64,000 nt of DNA. It comes from a virus. Every line of letters starts with the position of its first letter. Position 1 is the stretch's first letter. Positions 3,661 through 55,668 of the stretch are shown here, one piece after another. Where the stretch lies: positions 62,891 through 126,890 of IMG/VR virus record IMGVR_UViG_3300037313_000197. One strand, given 5' to 3'. Both the position numbers and the translations under genes were made by a program. The notes beneath the pieces are model-generated. The model saw only the letters and a program-made list of their open reading frames with translations. It ran no database searches and was not told the origin of the DNA.

Positions 3661-3753
3661 TTCTCTCCCTAATTAAGTGGGGAGCCTAGACGTTACTGCC
3701 ACGTCTTCTTCAAGGCCACAACTTGACGCATCACTTTAATGCTTTAGGCTCAG

Positions 3754-14852: not shown

Positions 14853-15625
14853 AGAAGAATTAGCCTTTCCTTATTGTCCTTATGGACCTGAACATAATCG
14901 ACCTCGGGAACAACCAAATCCTTTAGATTCAGCGCCGCGAAGAGTGCCCACTTACCCTTCCAGAAAGAGGTAATGGTCTGCTGCAATGCCCATCGGTAGG
15001 CAAATACAGGGTTTTCCTTATAGTCGCTTGGGATAATCTTACGCTCTAGAGCAGTAGCGTATACTTCCTCACGAACTAGACGCAACTTATCAGTATGAGT
15101 CATCTGCTCAAACTTCGTCCAATCCACCGCGACTTCCTCACCATCTACAAGAATTACCTCAAAGAGAGGCTTATCGTAATAGGCAACCGAAGCGTGGATA
15201 GAATCGTGCTCGTACTTTCGATCAACAGCAGCAGTAAAGAAGTTCTCTGCCTTAGCACCGCGAGGCAGACGAGCACGCTTGACACCGTAGTGCTCAACCC
15301 AGATCGGGTATAGAATATCATAAAGGGGCCGATGGAACTCTACACCTTTCTCCTGAAAGAAGATAGCATCCTTTGCGTGCTTGACCCAGCGGTTGTCCCA
15401 GAACAGGTGAGAAACCTTAATGGTGTACAACTCACGAGCCGACGCATACTTGGGGTAATCCCACGTGTAGTTCTCTAGGGCCGGGTGGTAGAAAGTCTCA
15501 ATCCTCTTGCCAAGACAATCCTTTGGCATCTTCTCATCTGTGAAGTAATCGTAATCCTTTGGCTCACGGTTCAGATCAGGAAACCAAATCTTCGCTGCTG
15601 CACTGCCGATAAGGCGAGGCTCCAT
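14849..15625 (-). CDS. Putative nucleotidyltransferase-like phage protein
   Basis: LIGSAAA..REPKDYDY (GS..DxD signature), YEHDSIH; RBS AGGAG before MEPRL. Confidence 0.6.
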   Translation of the reverse strand: MEPRLIGSAAAKIWFPDLNREPKDYDYFTDEKMPKDCLGKRIETFYHPALENYTWDYPKYASARELYTIKVSHLFWDNRWVKHAKDAIFFQEKGVEFHRPLYDILYPIWVEHYGVKRARLPRGAKAENFFTAAVDRKYEHDSIHASVAYYDKPLFEVILVDGEEVAVDWTKFEQMTHTDKLRLVREEVYATALERKIIPSDYKENPVFAYRWALQQTITSFWKGKWALFAALNLKDLVVPEVDYVQVHKDNKERLILL

Positions 15626-20019: not shown

Positions 20020-20763
20020 TTAGTTTAACACATCAGACTCTAGAAGGTCAAGCATTCCATTGTCTGTTTCCATCTTCCACACCCGGCGCTTTGCATTGGT
20101 GCTTTCAATACGGTTAGTAGCCCTATTGTAGTACTCAAATGGAAGGTCACGTGCCTCGCTGTAGAAGTATCGGCCATTGAAGAACGGGTCAGGAATCGGA
20201 AGAACATCAGGGTTCTTCTCTCGGATCATGTCGAGCATATCAGCCTTGTTCTTGCCTTGCAACTCCTTGTGACTGAACATCGACTGAGCCTGCATGGAAA
20301 TAGCATTCCTATTTGCATCGGCCTTGCGCCAGAGGAAGTAGTCGAGCACGTCCTCACGCTTCGTCAGACGGATCACACGAGCGTCGAAAACGGCTGGCTT
20401 TTTACCGGCGTGCGCGTGGTGTGCGTTGAAAAATCCGGTAAAGGTAGAGGCGCTTACAGACACGATCTTTTCCACCTTGCCACCAAACCATCCCTGCTCA
20501 TGCTCACGCTCATCAATGAGAAGCGAAATCTCATCAGACTGAGTGTAGGCAAACTTAACAGGAATATCAGAGTTGCGGCAAGTGTCATAAACAGCATTGT
20601 TCATAGCGCTGTGAAGCATACCATCAAAAGGCTTAACTAGGCCCTTGGTGTAGGTGTGGAAAGCCTTACCGTCAAGTCGGACGATCAGCCAACCGTCAGG
20701 CAGGATGCTGGAAGAATGCATCCTCTCAATAGCCTTGAACTTATCTCCAAGTTCAGTGTGCAT
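20020..20763 (-). CDS. thg1: tRNA-His guanylyltransferase (Thg1/TLP family)
   Basis: VRLDGKAFHTYTK..KPFD, YTQSDEISL, FDAR, YFLWRKAD..RNAISM. Confidence 0.92.
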   Translation of the reverse strand: MHTELGDKFKAIERMHSSSILPDGWLIVRLDGKAFHTYTKGLVKPFDGMLHSAMNNAVYDTCRNSDIPVKFAYTQSDEISLLIDEREHEQGWFGGKVEKIVSVSASTFTGFFNAHHAHAGKKPAVFDARVIRLTKREDVLDYFLWRKADANRNAISMQAQSMFSHKELQGKNKADMLDMIREKNPDVLPIPDPFFNGRYFYSEARDLPFEYYNRATNRIESTNAKRRVWKMETDNGMLDLLESDVLN

Positions 20764-22223: not shown

Positions 22224-22592
22224 TCAACTCTTACAAGGATTTGCCTTGACGTACCCGATGAACGTTCCCTTATCAGTAATTACATCAAAGAGCACCTGAG
22301 TGTTAGCGTTCTGGATAGTTCCTACCGTAATAGTATTGTTAGATGGATCGACTACATTTGGTGTCCAGTCTGTTGCTGGGAATCCATTGATATTTACACC
22401 AAGTACATTGTGCGTACCGGTCAGAGTCAGATAAAGGCGATAGTCGGCAGCCTGACGCTGAGCAGGCAACTTACATGACTTATCGGTATCCAGACCTTCT
22501 GTTACAGAAGCGGCAACAGCAGGAGCGGCGGTAGCAATCAAAACTGCTGGCACTGTCCATGCAGCACCCTTTACTACTGTTCTACGCTCCAT
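22224..22592 (-). CDS. Secreted protein with a twin-arginine-like leader
   Basis: MERRTVVKGAAWTVPAVLIATAAPAVAAS, a leader typical of actinobacterial exported proteins. Confidence 0.75.
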   Translation of the reverse strand: MERRTVVKGAAWTVPAVLIATAAPAVAASVTEGLDTDKSCKLPAQRQAADYRLYLTLTGTHNVLGVNINGFPATDWTPNVVDPSNNTITVGTIQNANTQVLFDVITDKGTFIGYVKANPCKS

Positions 22593-22619
22593 GATTTATC
22601 CTTTGGTTGTTTGGTTAAG

Positions 22620-22695
22620 TGGAGGTCTCGGGAGGGTTTGAACCTCCGTCCCCACGCCTTCCCGGCATGGTATTTTCCCTTAATACTACAAGACC
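22620..22695 (-). ncRNA. tRNA-like RNA with encoded CCA and a 5-nt anticodon loop (GGGAA)
   Basis: GGTCTTG/CGAGACC-T-CCA, D stem GTAT/ATAC, T-arm GGAGG-TTCAAAC-CCTCC, anticodon arm CATGCC-GGGAA-GGCGTG, no U33. Confidence 0.75.
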
Positions 22696-22696
22696 A

Positions 22697-22772
22697 TGGT
22701 GCGCCGGGGAAGACTTGAACTTCCATTCTCTCCTAGTAAAAGGAGCGGTGTTAGACTTACACCCACCGGCAC
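22697..22772 (-). ncRNA. tRNA-Val(TAC)-like RNA with encoded CCA and a 6-nt anticodon loop
   Basis: GTGCCGG/CCGGCGC-A-CCA, T-arm GGAAG-TTCAAGT-CTTCC, CTCCT-TTTACT-AGGAG. Confidence 0.75.
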
Positions 22773-22863
22773 TTATCGTAATCCTACACGATACCGTTCC
22801 ACATCTCAGCATTACCTGTCATGGCCGTATCTGCCTTATCATCGCCCACCCTCGGATTACAAG

Positions 22864-22938
22864 TGGTGCGGAATGCTACGCCTCGCAACGTAACGCTAAC
22901 GGTCCCGGTGACCGCCGTGCTCACTACACTAATTCCAC
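22864..22938 (-). ncRNA. tRNA-like RNA with encoded CCA and loop CACCGGG
   Basis: GTGGAAT/ATTCCGC-A-CCA, U8A9, D stem GTGT/GCAC, stem GCGGT/ACCGT, T-arm GTTACG-TTGCGAGG-CGTAGC. Confidence 0.65.
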
Positions 22939-23013: not shown

Positions 23014-23138
23014 ATATAAGGGACTGGTTAACACGGCCATTTATCCCTTGTTTAAAGTGCGTTCCGAATTTACACTTAGTTCTCTTCGTTTCGTATGTTA
23101 CCGGCAATCCATTATCCGGCGTTTATTTGTGTCTTATA

Positions 23139-23167
23139 AGCATACAGACTGTGACAGCGCTTGTCAA
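23139..23167 (-). promoter_or_regulatory. Sigma70-type promoter upstream of Asn and the tRNA-like array
   Basis: TTGACA-17-TATGCT. Confidence 0.65.
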
Positions 23168-23341
23168 GTCTGCTTGTTTGGGCGAAGTCTTTCTTCAATG
23201 TTATCGTTCATGATCTTCTCAGATGCTTCGTCATGACCTTCGCCACGTAATTCTCTTAATGCCCATTCAAGCGATAGTTCTCGTCCTCTTAGCATACCAA
23301 TGTACCAAGAGTCCTCATCAACTACCCGGCGATTCGTATTA

Positions 23342-23563
23342 TTAGCGATTCCCTCTAGGTGCTTGCGAACGAACTTCGCCTGACTTTCGATCTTCTCTTC
23401 GGGGGTCAACCTTTTTCTTTTCCTTCTTGGGTGGGAGAGCGAGGACAACCAAGTGTCCCGGTTCCTCAATACGCACAAGGCGTCCAAGAAACTCGTACTC
23501 TTCCTTCAATCTGTTCACTTGTTCGGGGGTACCGTGGAAGTGATAATTTCTTGCCTTAGCCAT
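23342..23563 (-). CDS. Basic hypothetical protein
   Basis: RBS GAAAGG, MAKARNYHFHG. Confidence 0.55.
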   Translation of the reverse strand: MAKARNYHFHGTPEQVNRLKEEYEFLGRLVRIEEPGHLVVLALPPKKEKKKVDPRREDRKSGEVRSQAPRGNR

Positions 23564-25756: not shown

Positions 25757-26098
25757 TCAGGCGTTGTTTCCGCTGTCAAGACTAGACTCTACACGATCCT
25801 CTTCGTCAGTGTCAACATGTACCGGAACTTCCCTTTCGTTCCAGTATGCACCTGCCGTCACTGTACCGGGCTTGACCTCAGTTCGTCCAGCATCAATGAT
25901 TACAACTTCACACTCTTCGATCTGTCTCTTTGTTCCGTCAAGAACAATGACCGGACCTCCGTGATGAGAGCCTACCAGTTGAAGCGCGGCGTGTACAGCC
26001 TGAGCAGCCAACTTCTTTGGACTCATCTTTGCATCCTTACGAACCTTAATTACTAATCTAAGTTCTTTAGGAACTTCTTCATTCTCAGACATTTTCAA
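25757..26098 (-). CDS. pth2: Peptidyl-tRNA hydrolase, Pth2 type
   Basis: VRKDAKMSPKKLAAQAVHA, IDAGRTEVKPGTVT. Confidence 0.88.
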   Translation of the reverse strand: MKMSENEEVPKELRLVIKVRKDAKMSPKKLAAQAVHAALQLVGSHHGGPVIVLDGTKRQIEECEVVIIDAGRTEVKPGTVTAGAYWNEREVPVHVDTDEEDRVESSLDSGNNA

Positions 26099-40736: not shown

Positions 40737-40828
40737 TGTTGCCTCCTTAGGTCTGTTTCCAACAGCCTATCGAACAGAGATAACAGTGTCAATAGCAACG
40801 CCCACGCGGTATGCGTGGGCGTCAGGGG

Positions 40829-40911
40829 CGGAAGGTGAGGGAGTCGAACCCACATCGGTTTTACCCTTAGCAGTTTTCAAGACTGTGTGCTACGCCAATT
40901 GCCGACCTTCC
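40829..40911 (-). tRNA. tRNA-Ser(TGA)
   Basis: GGAAGGT/ACCTTCC-G73, loop CTTGAAA, long variable arm. Confidence 0.9.
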
Positions 40912-40932
40912 ATTGGGCCGAAGCCCTTTTTA

Positions 40933-41244: not shown

Positions 41245-41320
41245 TGGTAGACGAGAAGGGACTTGAACCCTAATTACATGGTGTGTAAAACCATTGCATT
41301 ACCATATATGCTACTCGTCC
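41245..41320 (-). tRNA. tRNA-Val(TAC)
   Basis: GGACGAG/CTCGTCT-A-CCA, loop TTTACAC. Confidence 0.92.
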
Positions 41321-42144: not shown

Positions 42145-42217
42145 CGAGCCTGACGGGAGTTGAACCCGCTCCATACACCGTGACAGGGTGATATCTTAAC
42201 CGTTTGACCTCAGGCCC
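42145..42217 (-). tRNA. tRNA-Asp(GTC)
   Basis: GGGCCTG/CAGGCTC-G73, loop CTGTCAC. Confidence 0.92.
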
Positions 42218-52932: not shown

Positions 52933-53612
52933 TAGAGTCCTATCCCTTCCCCTTCTTCATAGGACTGGAATGGCTTGGTAAAGGTTTCTCTACCGGGCTC
53001 CCCGCCCCACTTCTTAATGTAATACTCTCTATTTCTTTCAAACATTGGACCGGTTACTACTTGCTCACCGCCCCAATTCTGAGTTACACTTCCCTTGTGA
53101 AAGAAAGGTGCTGCTGTAGACTTTGCTTCTTTTCCACCGGCCAGCCTGATTCGATAACTCATATCATTATCTTCAAAGTATGCTGGTGTGAAGGATTCGT
53201 CAAAGAAGCCAAACTTTACAAGAAACTTAATTGGATTTACCACAAAGCATGAATAGTCTGGGTGCTCTAGATATTGCACTCTGTCGGTATCATATCTTCC
53301 GTCTCTAGTGTTATATCCAGTTACTAGATCATAGTTCCACAGTCCCATGAGCATATTTGTCATAGTACCGGGCTCAAATACTACATCGTCATTAACAACA
53401 AAAGCAGCGTCAAGATATAGACTTGATGCTTTCTTCAAACCCTCGTTCCACCCCGCCGACACCCCGCGATTATCTCGCCAGTTATCGATGATGATTGGGA
53501 CAATGTCCATGTCCACAGACGCCATCAGTTCAGCGAATCCTTGGAAGTTCTTAAATACAGGAACGATCAACCCTACCTTATTAATCAATTGAATCCCAAT
53601 CCACTTCCTCAA
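52932..53612 (-). CDS. Glycosyltransferase family 2
   Basis: IVPV, GVSAGWNEG, VNDD, GFFDESF..YFEDNDMSYR. Confidence 0.88.
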   Translation of the reverse strand: MRKWIGIQLINKVGLIVPVFKNFQGFAELMASVDMDIVPIIIDNWRDNRGVSAGWNEGLKKASSLYLDAAFVVNDDVVFEPGTMTNMLMGLWNYDLVTGYNTRDGRYDTDRVQYLEHPDYSCFVVNPIKFLVKFGFFDESFTPAYFEDNDMSYRIRLAGGKEAKSTAAPFFHKGSVTQNWGGEQVVTGPMFERNREYYIKKWGGEPGRETFTKPFQSYEEGEGIGL

Positions 53613-54790: not shown

Positions 54791-55387
54791 TCACTCCTTA
54801 CGAGTTAGTTTATTAGCGGCATAATAGGCAACTCCAACGGCATCACCGATGTTGTCAGAGTCAGAGTCGATCTTAAAGTACTGGCGGGCGAATGTCAAGG
54901 TACGCTGCTTTCTCATTTGTCTACCGGCGTTCTGGTACCAAGATGCGCTCTTACCGGGATTGTCAGCCTTGATCTTGTCCTTTTCAACCTTTGTCAAGTT
55001 CTTGTTTCCAATGAATGACTGCCATGTGATCGGAGGAACCTCAACGACCTCAGCGCCATTCTGCATTAGTACCGAAATGACGGCACCGTAAACATAAGCC
55101 AAAAGGATTGCTGTCTTGACATTCTTAACGGCAATCGCTGCTTCGATGGCTACATAGTCGGCCCTGAAACCGTCCGTGCCCATGATATCAGACGACTCTA
55201 GGAGCGCCTGAGTTTTTACTCGTGCATCATTCAGTCGGGTGAAAACATTCGACCCTTCAAAGAAAACCTCGCCACAATAAAGAGCCTTGTCACCCTCAAA
55301 GCATGCGTATGCTAGAGACTTGGTTGAACAGTCAATACCTAACGCCCTTACTACCGGCGTCCTTGTTGCTCTGTCCCATTTGCTCAT
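54791..55387 (-). CDS. ruvC: RuvC-like Holliday junction resolvase
   Basis: LGIDCST, VAIE, DNIGDAVGVA. Confidence 0.85.
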   Translation of the reverse strand: MSKWDRATRTPVVRALGIDCSTKSLAYACFEGDKALYCGEVFFEGSNVFTRLNDARVKTQALLESSDIMGTDGFRADYVAIEAAIAVKNVKTAILLAYVYGAVISVLMQNGAEVVEVPPITWQSFIGNKNLTKVEKDKIKADNPGKSASWYQNAGRQMRKQRTLTFARQYFKIDSDSDNIGDAVGVAYYAANKLTRKE

Positions 55388-55668
55388 AATATCGCATCCA
55401 ATACTGTCTTTGTGCGCTTAGTCTCTGCGGCTGCCTCGCACTTGGCGCAAAACTTGGACTCGTTGTAACGAGAAAGAAACGTTCCGCAGTGAGGCGTTTT
55501 GCAAACTCTCTCTGCTCCATTCATACGGGCTTTGTCCTCGTAATAACGCTTCATCAATCGTGCATTAGTGGCGCGCTTACAGCATTCATCCGTATGGTAA
55601 ATCTGATTGTGCTTCGCTGGCGTAAAGGCTACACCACATTCTTCGTAGGCGCAAATTCTACTATTCAT
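55384..55668 (-). CDS. Cys-rich hypothetical protein
   Basis: Multiple CxxC-like pairs. Confidence 0.6.
   Translation of the reverse strand: MNSRICAYEECGVAFTPAKHNQIYHTDECCKRATNARLMKRYYEDKARMNGAERVCKTPHCGTFLSRYNESKFCAKCEAAAETKRTKTVLDAIL

Follow-up and report, generated by a model that had tools for sequence, protein, structure and literature searches.

Why would a phage keep, inside a cluster of transfer RNA (tRNA) genes, a row of RNAs that are shaped like tRNAs and end in CCA, and that lack a loop with which to read a codon? The question is raised by four small elements, here called E1 to E4, in a 64,000-nucleotide (nt) stretch of phage DNA (positions 62,891 to 126,890 of the IMG/VR virus record IMGVR_UViG_3300037313_000197), which was analysed as a whole and is referred to as the window. 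The elements follow a canonical tRNA-Asn on the minus strand in the order E1, E4, E2, E3, with spacings of 0, 3, 5 and 1 nt, and the 3' ends encoded by E1, E2 and E3 are ACCA, ACCA and UCCA. A first-pass annotation of this DNA, made without database searches, took E1 to E3 for tRNA mimics with broken anticodon loops and argued that they had been shaped by selection rather than decay. We find that comparison with a related phage supports selection on the fold and acceptor end of E1 and E2, because E2 has kept its stems, and E1 its acceptor end, while the pseudo-anticodons have changed. The proposal is thus supported for E1, and for E2 in part; for E3 it is not supported. Of the roles that such RNAs might have, we tentatively favour that of processing signals.

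tRNA-like elements without a decoding loop

In all of the other 33 tRNAs called by ARAGORN in the window, and in all 23 of the related phage, U33 lies in a 7-nt anticodon loop (56/56) and is preceded by a pyrimidine (Y32-U33). No oddities were seen among 54 tRNAs of other phage loci. None of E1, E2 and E3 combines a 7-nt loop, U33 and a purine at position 37, and, judged by these features, the three elements cannot decode in the normal way. The annotation had described each loop as defective in a manner of its own. The predicted folds bear this out: E1 carries CACCGGG without U33, E2 a 6-nt UUUACU and E3 a 5-nt GGGAA, and the normal tRNA-Val with a UAC anticodon to which E2 had been compared is present elsewhere in the phage. 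In E1 and E3 a C32:G38 pair closes the loop to 5 nt. The encoded CCA was rightly called unusual for this phage, being found in 3/3 elements as against 6/33 of the other ARAGORN tRNAs; at that frequency three out of three would be expected by chance with a probability of ~0.006.

The elements differ in how much of a tRNA they retain. The minimum-energy fold of E1 is a cloverleaf (z = -2.0) with a 7-bp acceptor stem that includes a U2-G71 wobble, the discriminator A73 before the encoded CCA, a 4-bp D stem with a 5-nt loop, and an "anticodon" stem of 7 bp under an ACCGG loop, which if read as 7 nt would be CACCGGG with A33. At the position of the T arm stands an 8-bp stem under a GCGA tetraloop; there is no T loop and no G18G19. 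E1 is not called as a tRNA by ARAGORN, nor by Rfam even at E<=10. E2 and E3 score 39.5 and 36.2 bits against the Rfam tRNA family (RF00005), above its gathering score of 29, and by these scores they are tRNA-derived. E2 folds as a clean cloverleaf (-31 kcal/mol, z = -3.6) with a canonical T arm and A73-CCA, has a D loop without G18G19 and A14, and is called by ARAGORN as "tRNA-???" with a 2-base anticodon. In E3 the T loop is canonical, G18G19 is present and the end is U73-CCA; at minimum energy the anticodon arm folds into a 7-bp stem under the GGGAA loop (CGGGAAG with G33 if read as 7 nt), and the weak D stem is missing from that fold. The claim that only the anticodon loop had been altered does not survive this inspection, since T loop and G18G19 are absent from E1, as are G18G19 and A14 from the D loop of E2, and the D stem of E3 is weak.

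E4 has the 7-bp closing helix that had been noticed in it (GUAAUCC/GGAUUAC). Its fold as a whole is not better than that of shuffled sequences (z = -1.5), no Rfam family matches it and no consensus fold was found. Weak Rfam matches in E4 and at the E1/E4 junction (C/D-box small nucleolar RNAs and RT-18; E = 3-7) were taken as chance. A micro-open reading frame in E4 was rejected as well; a close relative, described below, has a net indel of 5 nt there and the related phage has no conserved peptide. A paralog search indicates that none of E1 to E3 was copied recently from a tRNA of one or the other phage. Genome-wide, 39 elements are closed by 7 bp and end in NCCA against ~34 expected by chance, that is, they occur at chance level. 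An assembly error as the source of the 6-nt loop of E2 is unlikely; all sampled words occur in the source run, and in the relatives, too, the loops depart from the canonical form.

Acceptor ends and folds in related phages

Searches of IMG/VR, for which the upstream protein, the Thg1-like and PTH2-like proteins and several DNA patterns served as queries, gave one related phage, 3300013105_000002 (L003/G001 in what follows; L012, L014, L016 and L025 equal L003, and L013 is identical over the aligned array stretch). Five other hits of one pattern, which was out of register for the array type of the window, were chance matches in coding DNA. Further metagenome and genome scans yielded no other usable relative, and L110 ends at a contig edge. 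The PTH2-like, Thg1-like and upstream proteins of this phage are 78%, 58% and 60% identical to those of the window phage, and its tRNA island is syntenic. The upstream protein has 16 homologs at 56-95% identity and none in five Streptomyces phages. The order in L003 is promoter, tRNA-Asn, E1, E4, E2, CA-rich leader and an open reading frame (ORF) with a conserved N-terminus; E3 has no counterpart at the locus. A promoter, TTGACA-17-TACAAT, lies at the matching place, and the leader before tRNA-Asn is ~40 nt long.

The counterpart of E1 in L003 is a 37-nt hairpin of 12 bp (7 + 5) with a loop and an ACCA end (z = -5.6). The geometry is that of an acceptor/T minihelix, and the whole interior of the E1 seen in the window is gone. 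The 5' GUGGA and the 3' block UCCGCACCACUUG are identical in both phages, the acceptor end reading GUGGA...UCCGC-ACCA, and acceptor pairs 6 and 7 have changed on both sides. The L003 counterpart of E2 is a cloverleaf whose acceptor stem is identical at 6/7 pairs and keeps A73. Between the two E2 sequences 21/21 pairs form, with 9 unchanged, 3 altered in a single base, 9 altered in both bases and 0 broken, a pairing pattern reached by 0/10,000 partner shuffles. Genuine orthologous tRNAs of the two phages are mostly 56-78% identical and E2 is ~65% identical; it diverges like a real tRNA while its fold is kept. The pairs G1-C72, U2-G71 and G3-C70 together with A73 are common to E1 and E2 in both phages. 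Other parts have not been kept. The anticodon arm of the L003 E2 has 17 nt and a loop CAUUUGG, with A33 in place of U33 and C32 and G38 able to pair; its T loop is UGUAAGU and its tail CAA instead of CCA. Neither E1 nor E2 of L003 is detected by ARAGORN or Rfam. The E4 counterpart is closed by GGUAAC/GUUACC (z = -0.35).

These comparisons bear directly on the earlier proposal. Canonical 7-nt loops in relatives, named beforehand as a sign against it, were not seen: L003 E2 carries CAUUUGG and L003 E1 is a bare minihelix. Of the two kinds of conservation to be looked for across relatives, compensatory changes are present in the stems of E2, and conservation of the loop is absent. Since the pseudo-anticodons are not conserved, the RNAs have probably long been without a decoding role. 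As far as sequence comparison can tell, the preserved part is the acceptor/T "top half" with its NCCA-type 3' end, and the anticodon arm is not preserved. RNase P, RNase Z, CCA-adding enzymes, EF-Tu and factors directed at the acceptor all recognise this part; anticodon nucleases do not. Among the roles first proposed, we rank a decoy for anticodon nucleases last in likelihood, since precisely the anticodon loop has been destroyed or sealed and is not conserved. The selection argument is weakened for E2 by its CAA tail in L003, and for E3, absent from L003, selection is not supported; E3 may be a recent addition or a relic.

At shorter distance, contigs of four rhizosphere runs were compared with the locus by means of difference tables. 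They describe a relative of ~92% identity, in which 22/316 and 8/82 positions of flanking coding DNA differ (7-10%), as do 13/67 positions of tRNA-Asn (~19%). For E1 one change is listed, at 22907, the middle base of the pseudo-anticodon, and for one run none. E4 has substitutions and a net deletion of 5 nt, confined to its apex, with indels at 22802-22823. The leader before tRNA-Asn has 120 nt replaced by 67 nt, and the stretch 22482-22779, holding E2, E3 and the start of the ORF, is replaced by 229 unlike letters, 69 nt shorter, with room for only one tRNA-sized element. By these tables the 3' end of E1 with the first third of E4 (22827-22872) is the best-conserved block of the locus, and the E2/E3 stretch turns over quickly. 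A second and more abundant rhizosphere contig, of 19 kb, shares only 22827-22872 with the window (44/46 positions) and differs on both sides. Cultured phages gave no match to the array or to the transfer-messenger RNA (tmRNA) of the window, and in Streptomyces phage Francob the 250 nt after tRNA-Asn hold no tRNA-like element.

The array unit and its genome

The features that the annotation had placed on the minus strand, from the promoter through tRNA-Asn to E3, were all recovered at their positions (Table 1). The 3' end of tRNA-Asn is G73-C74 with no encoded CCA, and E1 begins at the next nucleotide. After the array come the ORF of 122 amino acids (aa), an ORF of 482 aa and the Thg1-like gene. 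A scan for promoters and terminators gave no promoter and no convincing terminator match between the array and the downstream ORFs, and co-transcription of the two is therefore likely. The CA-rich leader is kept in L003, with UUAACCAA.CAACCAAAGG common to both phages. ORFs on the plus strand over the array are taken as spurious, having no Pfam family and no homologs.

Table 1. Features of the array unit and of related genes in the window
Feature	Position	Strand	Basis or remark
Sigma-70-like promoter, TTGACA-17-TATGCT	23167-23139	-	Consensus scan, 10/12 matches
Variable leader, 125 nt	23014-23138	-	Between promoter and tRNA-Asn
Canonical tRNA-Asn(GUU), 75 nt	23013-22939	-	ARAGORN; Rfam 65.1 bits
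E1	22938-22864	-	Acceptor stem and ACCA module; then CUU
E4	22860-22778	-	Helix-closed spacer; then GAUAA
E2	22772-22697	-	tRNA-fold gene, 6-nt anticodon loop; then U
E3	22695-22620	-	tRNA-fold gene, sealed anticodon arm
CA-rich leader, 27 nt, with ribosome-binding site	22593-22619	-	Directly after E3; kept in L003
First downstream ORF, 122 aa, signal-peptide protein (MERRTVVKGAAW...)	22224-22592	-	
Thg1-like gene	20020-20763	-	Pfam
PTH2-like gene	25757-26098		PF01981, E = 7e-9; 2.8 kb upstream of array, separate promoter unit
tRNA-Val(UAC)	41245-41320	-	ARAGORN

The signal peptide of the 122-aa product is of the twin-arginine type (MERRTVVKGAAW...) and is near-identical in L003, its mature part being divergent; no Pfam family and no cultured-phage homolog was found for it. 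Upstream of the array, the minus-strand ORFs 23342-23563 and 23164-23487 overlap by 146 nt, and their L003 counterparts (14873-15094 and 15027-15260) by 68 nt. In the window the overlap holds an A-rich run of lysine codons (AAGAAGGAAAAGAAAAAGG), through which some homologs of the second ORF extend upstream. The pair may mark a +1 frameshift site or may simply be overlapping genes.

The virus record comprises 126,890 bp with direct terminal repeats, of which the window is the right half, and its G+C content is 45-50%. The terminase region has ~65% DNA identity to Streptomyces phages of the BE/BK type; Genie2 and Karp, which are among these matches, belong to the Stanwilliamsviridae. By terminase similarity this uncultured soil phage is a distant relative of the BE/BK-type phages. 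The tRNA genes of the window (35 ARAGORN calls and a tRNA-Asp found by Rfam only) and the tmRNA, detected by both ARAGORN and Rfam, all lie on the minus strand. Most of the tRNAs that do not encode CCA encode a C right after the discriminator (N73-C, then other bases), and just outside the window (G000:C1:60846-61310) the phage encodes a short CCA-adding-type nucleotidyltransferase of 254 aa. No gating codon was seen in the PTH2-like gene, and genes for RtcB and Ro60 (TROVE, PF05731) were not found in the genome.

Several tRNAs of the two phages deserve mention in their own right. The tRNA-Asn of L003 (15308-15396) has 89 nt, its D arm being extended and its anticodon and T arms being set apart by a long additional stretch, and its counterpart in the window is canonical. 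The tRNA-Gly(UCC) of G001 (53076-53147; L021-L024 joined) carries the acceptor signature of E1 and E2 with A73 instead of the usual U73; the window ortholog has the canonical Gly set. The tRNA-Ser(UGA) genes (40826-40912 in the window, 55334-55421 in G001, L021-L024 joined) are identical at 87/88 positions, which points to recent exchange or extreme constraint in an island whose other orthologous tRNAs are mostly far more diverged. The tRNA-Asp(GUC) at 42145-42217 on the minus strand scores 51.8 bits in Rfam and is missed by ARAGORN. Right behind tRNA-Gly(GCC), at 3678-3751 on the minus strand, lies a 74-nt cloverleaf (z = -2.7) missed by both programs, with a normal loop UUGUGGC (His, GUG), a C73-CCA end and D and T arms without the normal elbow. 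It does not encode G-1, the upstream base being U. Neither ARAGORN nor Rfam reports a tRNA-His for the window, and the Thg1-like enzyme could add G-1 opposite C73 of this cloverleaf.

Possible roles and known counterparts

What might the elements do? The reading we favour, tentatively, is that they are processing modules of the t-element type known from plant mitochondria. The array would then be a co-transcribed block of non-decoding, tRNA-derived RNA modules set between tRNA-Asn and an mRNA. RNase P would cut 5' of each acceptor helix, and RNase Z might cut as well. The cut at E1 would free tRNA-Asn with only C74 trailing, and a CCA-adding enzyme of phage or host would complete its end. The last element, E3 here and E2 in L003, would set the 5' end of the downstream mRNA and give it a short CA-rich leader, and, once cut out, the CCA-ended RNAs might in addition survive as small stable RNAs. 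RNase P accepts a minihelix with RCCA as a minimal substrate. Cleavage of small substrates by RNase P depends on the 3' RCCA motif (PMC12710915), and t-elements and acceptor-like stem-loops appear to direct cuts by RNase P or RNase Z at mRNA ends (Forner et al. 2007, PMC1920247). The ends of the elements fit such signals in both phages, the first lying 0 nt after tRNA-Asn and the last 27-30 nt before the ORF start, the transcript ends themselves being predictions.

Several points weigh against cutting signals. E1 is near-invariant among close relatives in sequence and not only in shape, which a cis signal does not explain, nor does it explain the need for two or three elements, a number that seems redundant. 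Roughly one in two isolated tRNAs of the island is not followed by a helix-closed element; tRNAs in general can thus do without a helper, and the idea of one behind every tRNA was rejected. Relatives can dispense with E3. In some bacteria, an encoded CCA is reported to be a block to RNase Z, which would complicate the 3' cuts. The comparative support comes from one related phage, L003/G001, and from contig tables of differences. The conservation of E1, the redundant number and the tRNAs without such a neighbour favour a different account, in which the excised CCA-ended RNAs would act in trans as acceptor-end mimics, each a decoy or sponge for some factor with an affinity for tRNA top halves or 3' ends. 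Candidate partners are host defence toxins that attack acceptor stems or 3' ends of tRNAs by modification or cleavage, acetyltransferase toxins with charged tRNA as their target, synthetases and EF-Tu, and the mimics would act alongside the CCA-adding-type, Thg1-like and PTH2-like enzymes and the tmRNA of the phage. In line with this account, E1 is conserved beyond what its fold would need and keeps its acceptor end in L003 despite the lost interior, E1 and E2 share their first pairs and discriminator in both phages, CCA is encoded far more often than in the other tRNAs, and the island is rich in translation-repair genes; the rapid replacement of E2 and E3 between close relatives could also reflect an arms race. 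We nevertheless consider it unlikely, as E2 ends in CAA in L003 and the acceptor signature is found in the decoding tRNA-Gly(UCC) of G001 too, hence is not specific to mimics; its anticodon-nuclease version is unlikely in any case, the loop being variable and sealed. More doubtful still is its sharpest form, in which E1, and perhaps E2 and E3, would be dedicated top-half mimics that titrate a host defence factor attacking tRNA 3' ends or acceptor stems or acting on charged tRNA. That these mimics, once released from the tRNA-Asn transcript, would work together with the Thg1-like, PTH2-like and CCA-adding-type enzymes of the phage is put forward with the same strong reserve.

A question remains, are the elements anything more than decaying pseudogenes, functionless copies left behind by fast turnover of the tRNA island? 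Turnover is high, because genuine orthologous tRNAs are so far diverged, and each element is "broken" in its own way. E3 has no ortholog in L003, the stretch with E2 and E3 is replaced by a shorter one in the ~92% relative, the L003 E2 has lost CCA, the canonical T loop and its recognition by Rfam and ARAGORN, and E4 has no significant fold. Neutral decay is still plausible for E3 and part of E2. As an account of the whole array we judge it improbable. With flanking proteins only 58-60% identical, neutral stems should be riddled with mismatches, whereas E2 keeps every pair with nine double changes; the L003 E1 is a precise acceptor stem with 5 further bp, not a random deletion product; and in close relatives E1 is more conserved than adjacent coding DNA and tRNA-Asn. 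Non-decoding loops stand at this locus in both lineages, therefore they must have persisted long without decoding. Very little speaks for private amino-acid carriers, RNAs charged independently of the anticodon from which a non-ribosomal transferase would take the amino acid. In favour of this are the intact acceptor stems, discriminators and CCA ends, and the canonical T loop and G18G19 that E3 keeps. Against this, no aminoacyl-transferase-type gene was found in the operon (Pfam recognises only Thg1 and PTH2 nearby), there is no G3-U70, long variable arm or G-1 to allow such charging, and the L003 E1 is only a minihelix. The most improbable of the readings makes the elements unusual decoders, with E2 reading a two-base codon with a -1 frameshift, or purine-33 loops still decoding (CCG, GGA). 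ARAGORN does read two bases in E2, and the overlapping ORFs with their A-rich run lie just upstream. That overlap, however, needs a +1 and not a -1 shift, the "anticodon" is not conserved (UA(C) in E2, UUU in its ortholog), the middle base of the E1 loop is changed in the ~92% relative, the L003 E1 has no anticodon arm, and the C32:G38 pair leaves loops of 5 nt.

The tRNA islands of phages are commonly taken for stocks of spare decoders; here a part of one appears to be kept for something other than decoding, with an acceptor end that survives large divergence and in L003 is all that is left, as a minihelix. Should the elements be cutting signals, phages would use tRNA-shaped punctuation to build operons of tRNA and mRNA. 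Should they work in trans, they would form a new class of decoy RNAs, aimed at immunity that targets tRNAs, and dedicated top-half mimics, if real, would amount to an RNA counter-defence of a kind not yet described. Standard annotation passes over such elements, E1 and both L003 orthologs being invisible to ARAGORN and Rfam.

Small RNAs other than tRNAs are known from phage tRNA clusters. In that of phage T4, stable RNAs named species 1 and 2 (RNA C and RNA D, ~120-140 nt) are co-transcribed and processed with the tRNAs. The array resembles them in its location, but its elements are tRNA-sized and E2 and E3 score as tRNA in Rfam; the comparison is by description, not by sequence. Minihelices consisting of an acceptor stem, a T stem-loop and NCCA are laboratory constructs that serve as substrates of RNase P, CCA-adding enzymes and some synthetases. 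The L003 E1 is a natural 12-bp hairpin ending in ACCA with exactly this geometry, its activity being predicted only, and a natural, conserved minihelix abutting a tRNA gene is unusual. Frameshift-suppressor tRNAs have loops of 8 or 9 nt with a 4-base anticodon, whereas the loops here have 5-6 nt and a 2-base anticodon is read by ARAGORN in E2 only. YrlA and other bacterial Y RNAs (RF02553) are likewise tRNA-like non-coding RNAs and occur in actinophage relatives, Francob being annotated with a Ro-like protein; unlike them, the array has no RF02553 match in or near it and the phage has no TROVE/Ro60 gene. Some phage tRNAs evade host anticodon nucleases through substitutions in the anticodon loop and stand in for host tRNAs that have been depleted (van den Berg et al. 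2023, PMC10264068). These too are encoded by tRNA-rich genomes of the actinophage type and have an altered anticodon loop, but they keep a loop that decodes, whereas the loops of E1 to E3 are shortened or sealed and the "anticodon" differs between orthologs. The t-elements belong to another domain of life and show no homology to the array, which is tandem, encodes CCA, lies in a phage tRNA operon and is cleaved by prediction only. In form and position they are nonetheless alike: both are tRNA-shaped or acceptor-like, have no decoding role and abut the ends of tRNAs or mRNAs, and excised t-elements can persist and gain a non-encoded C or A at their 3' end (PMC1920247).

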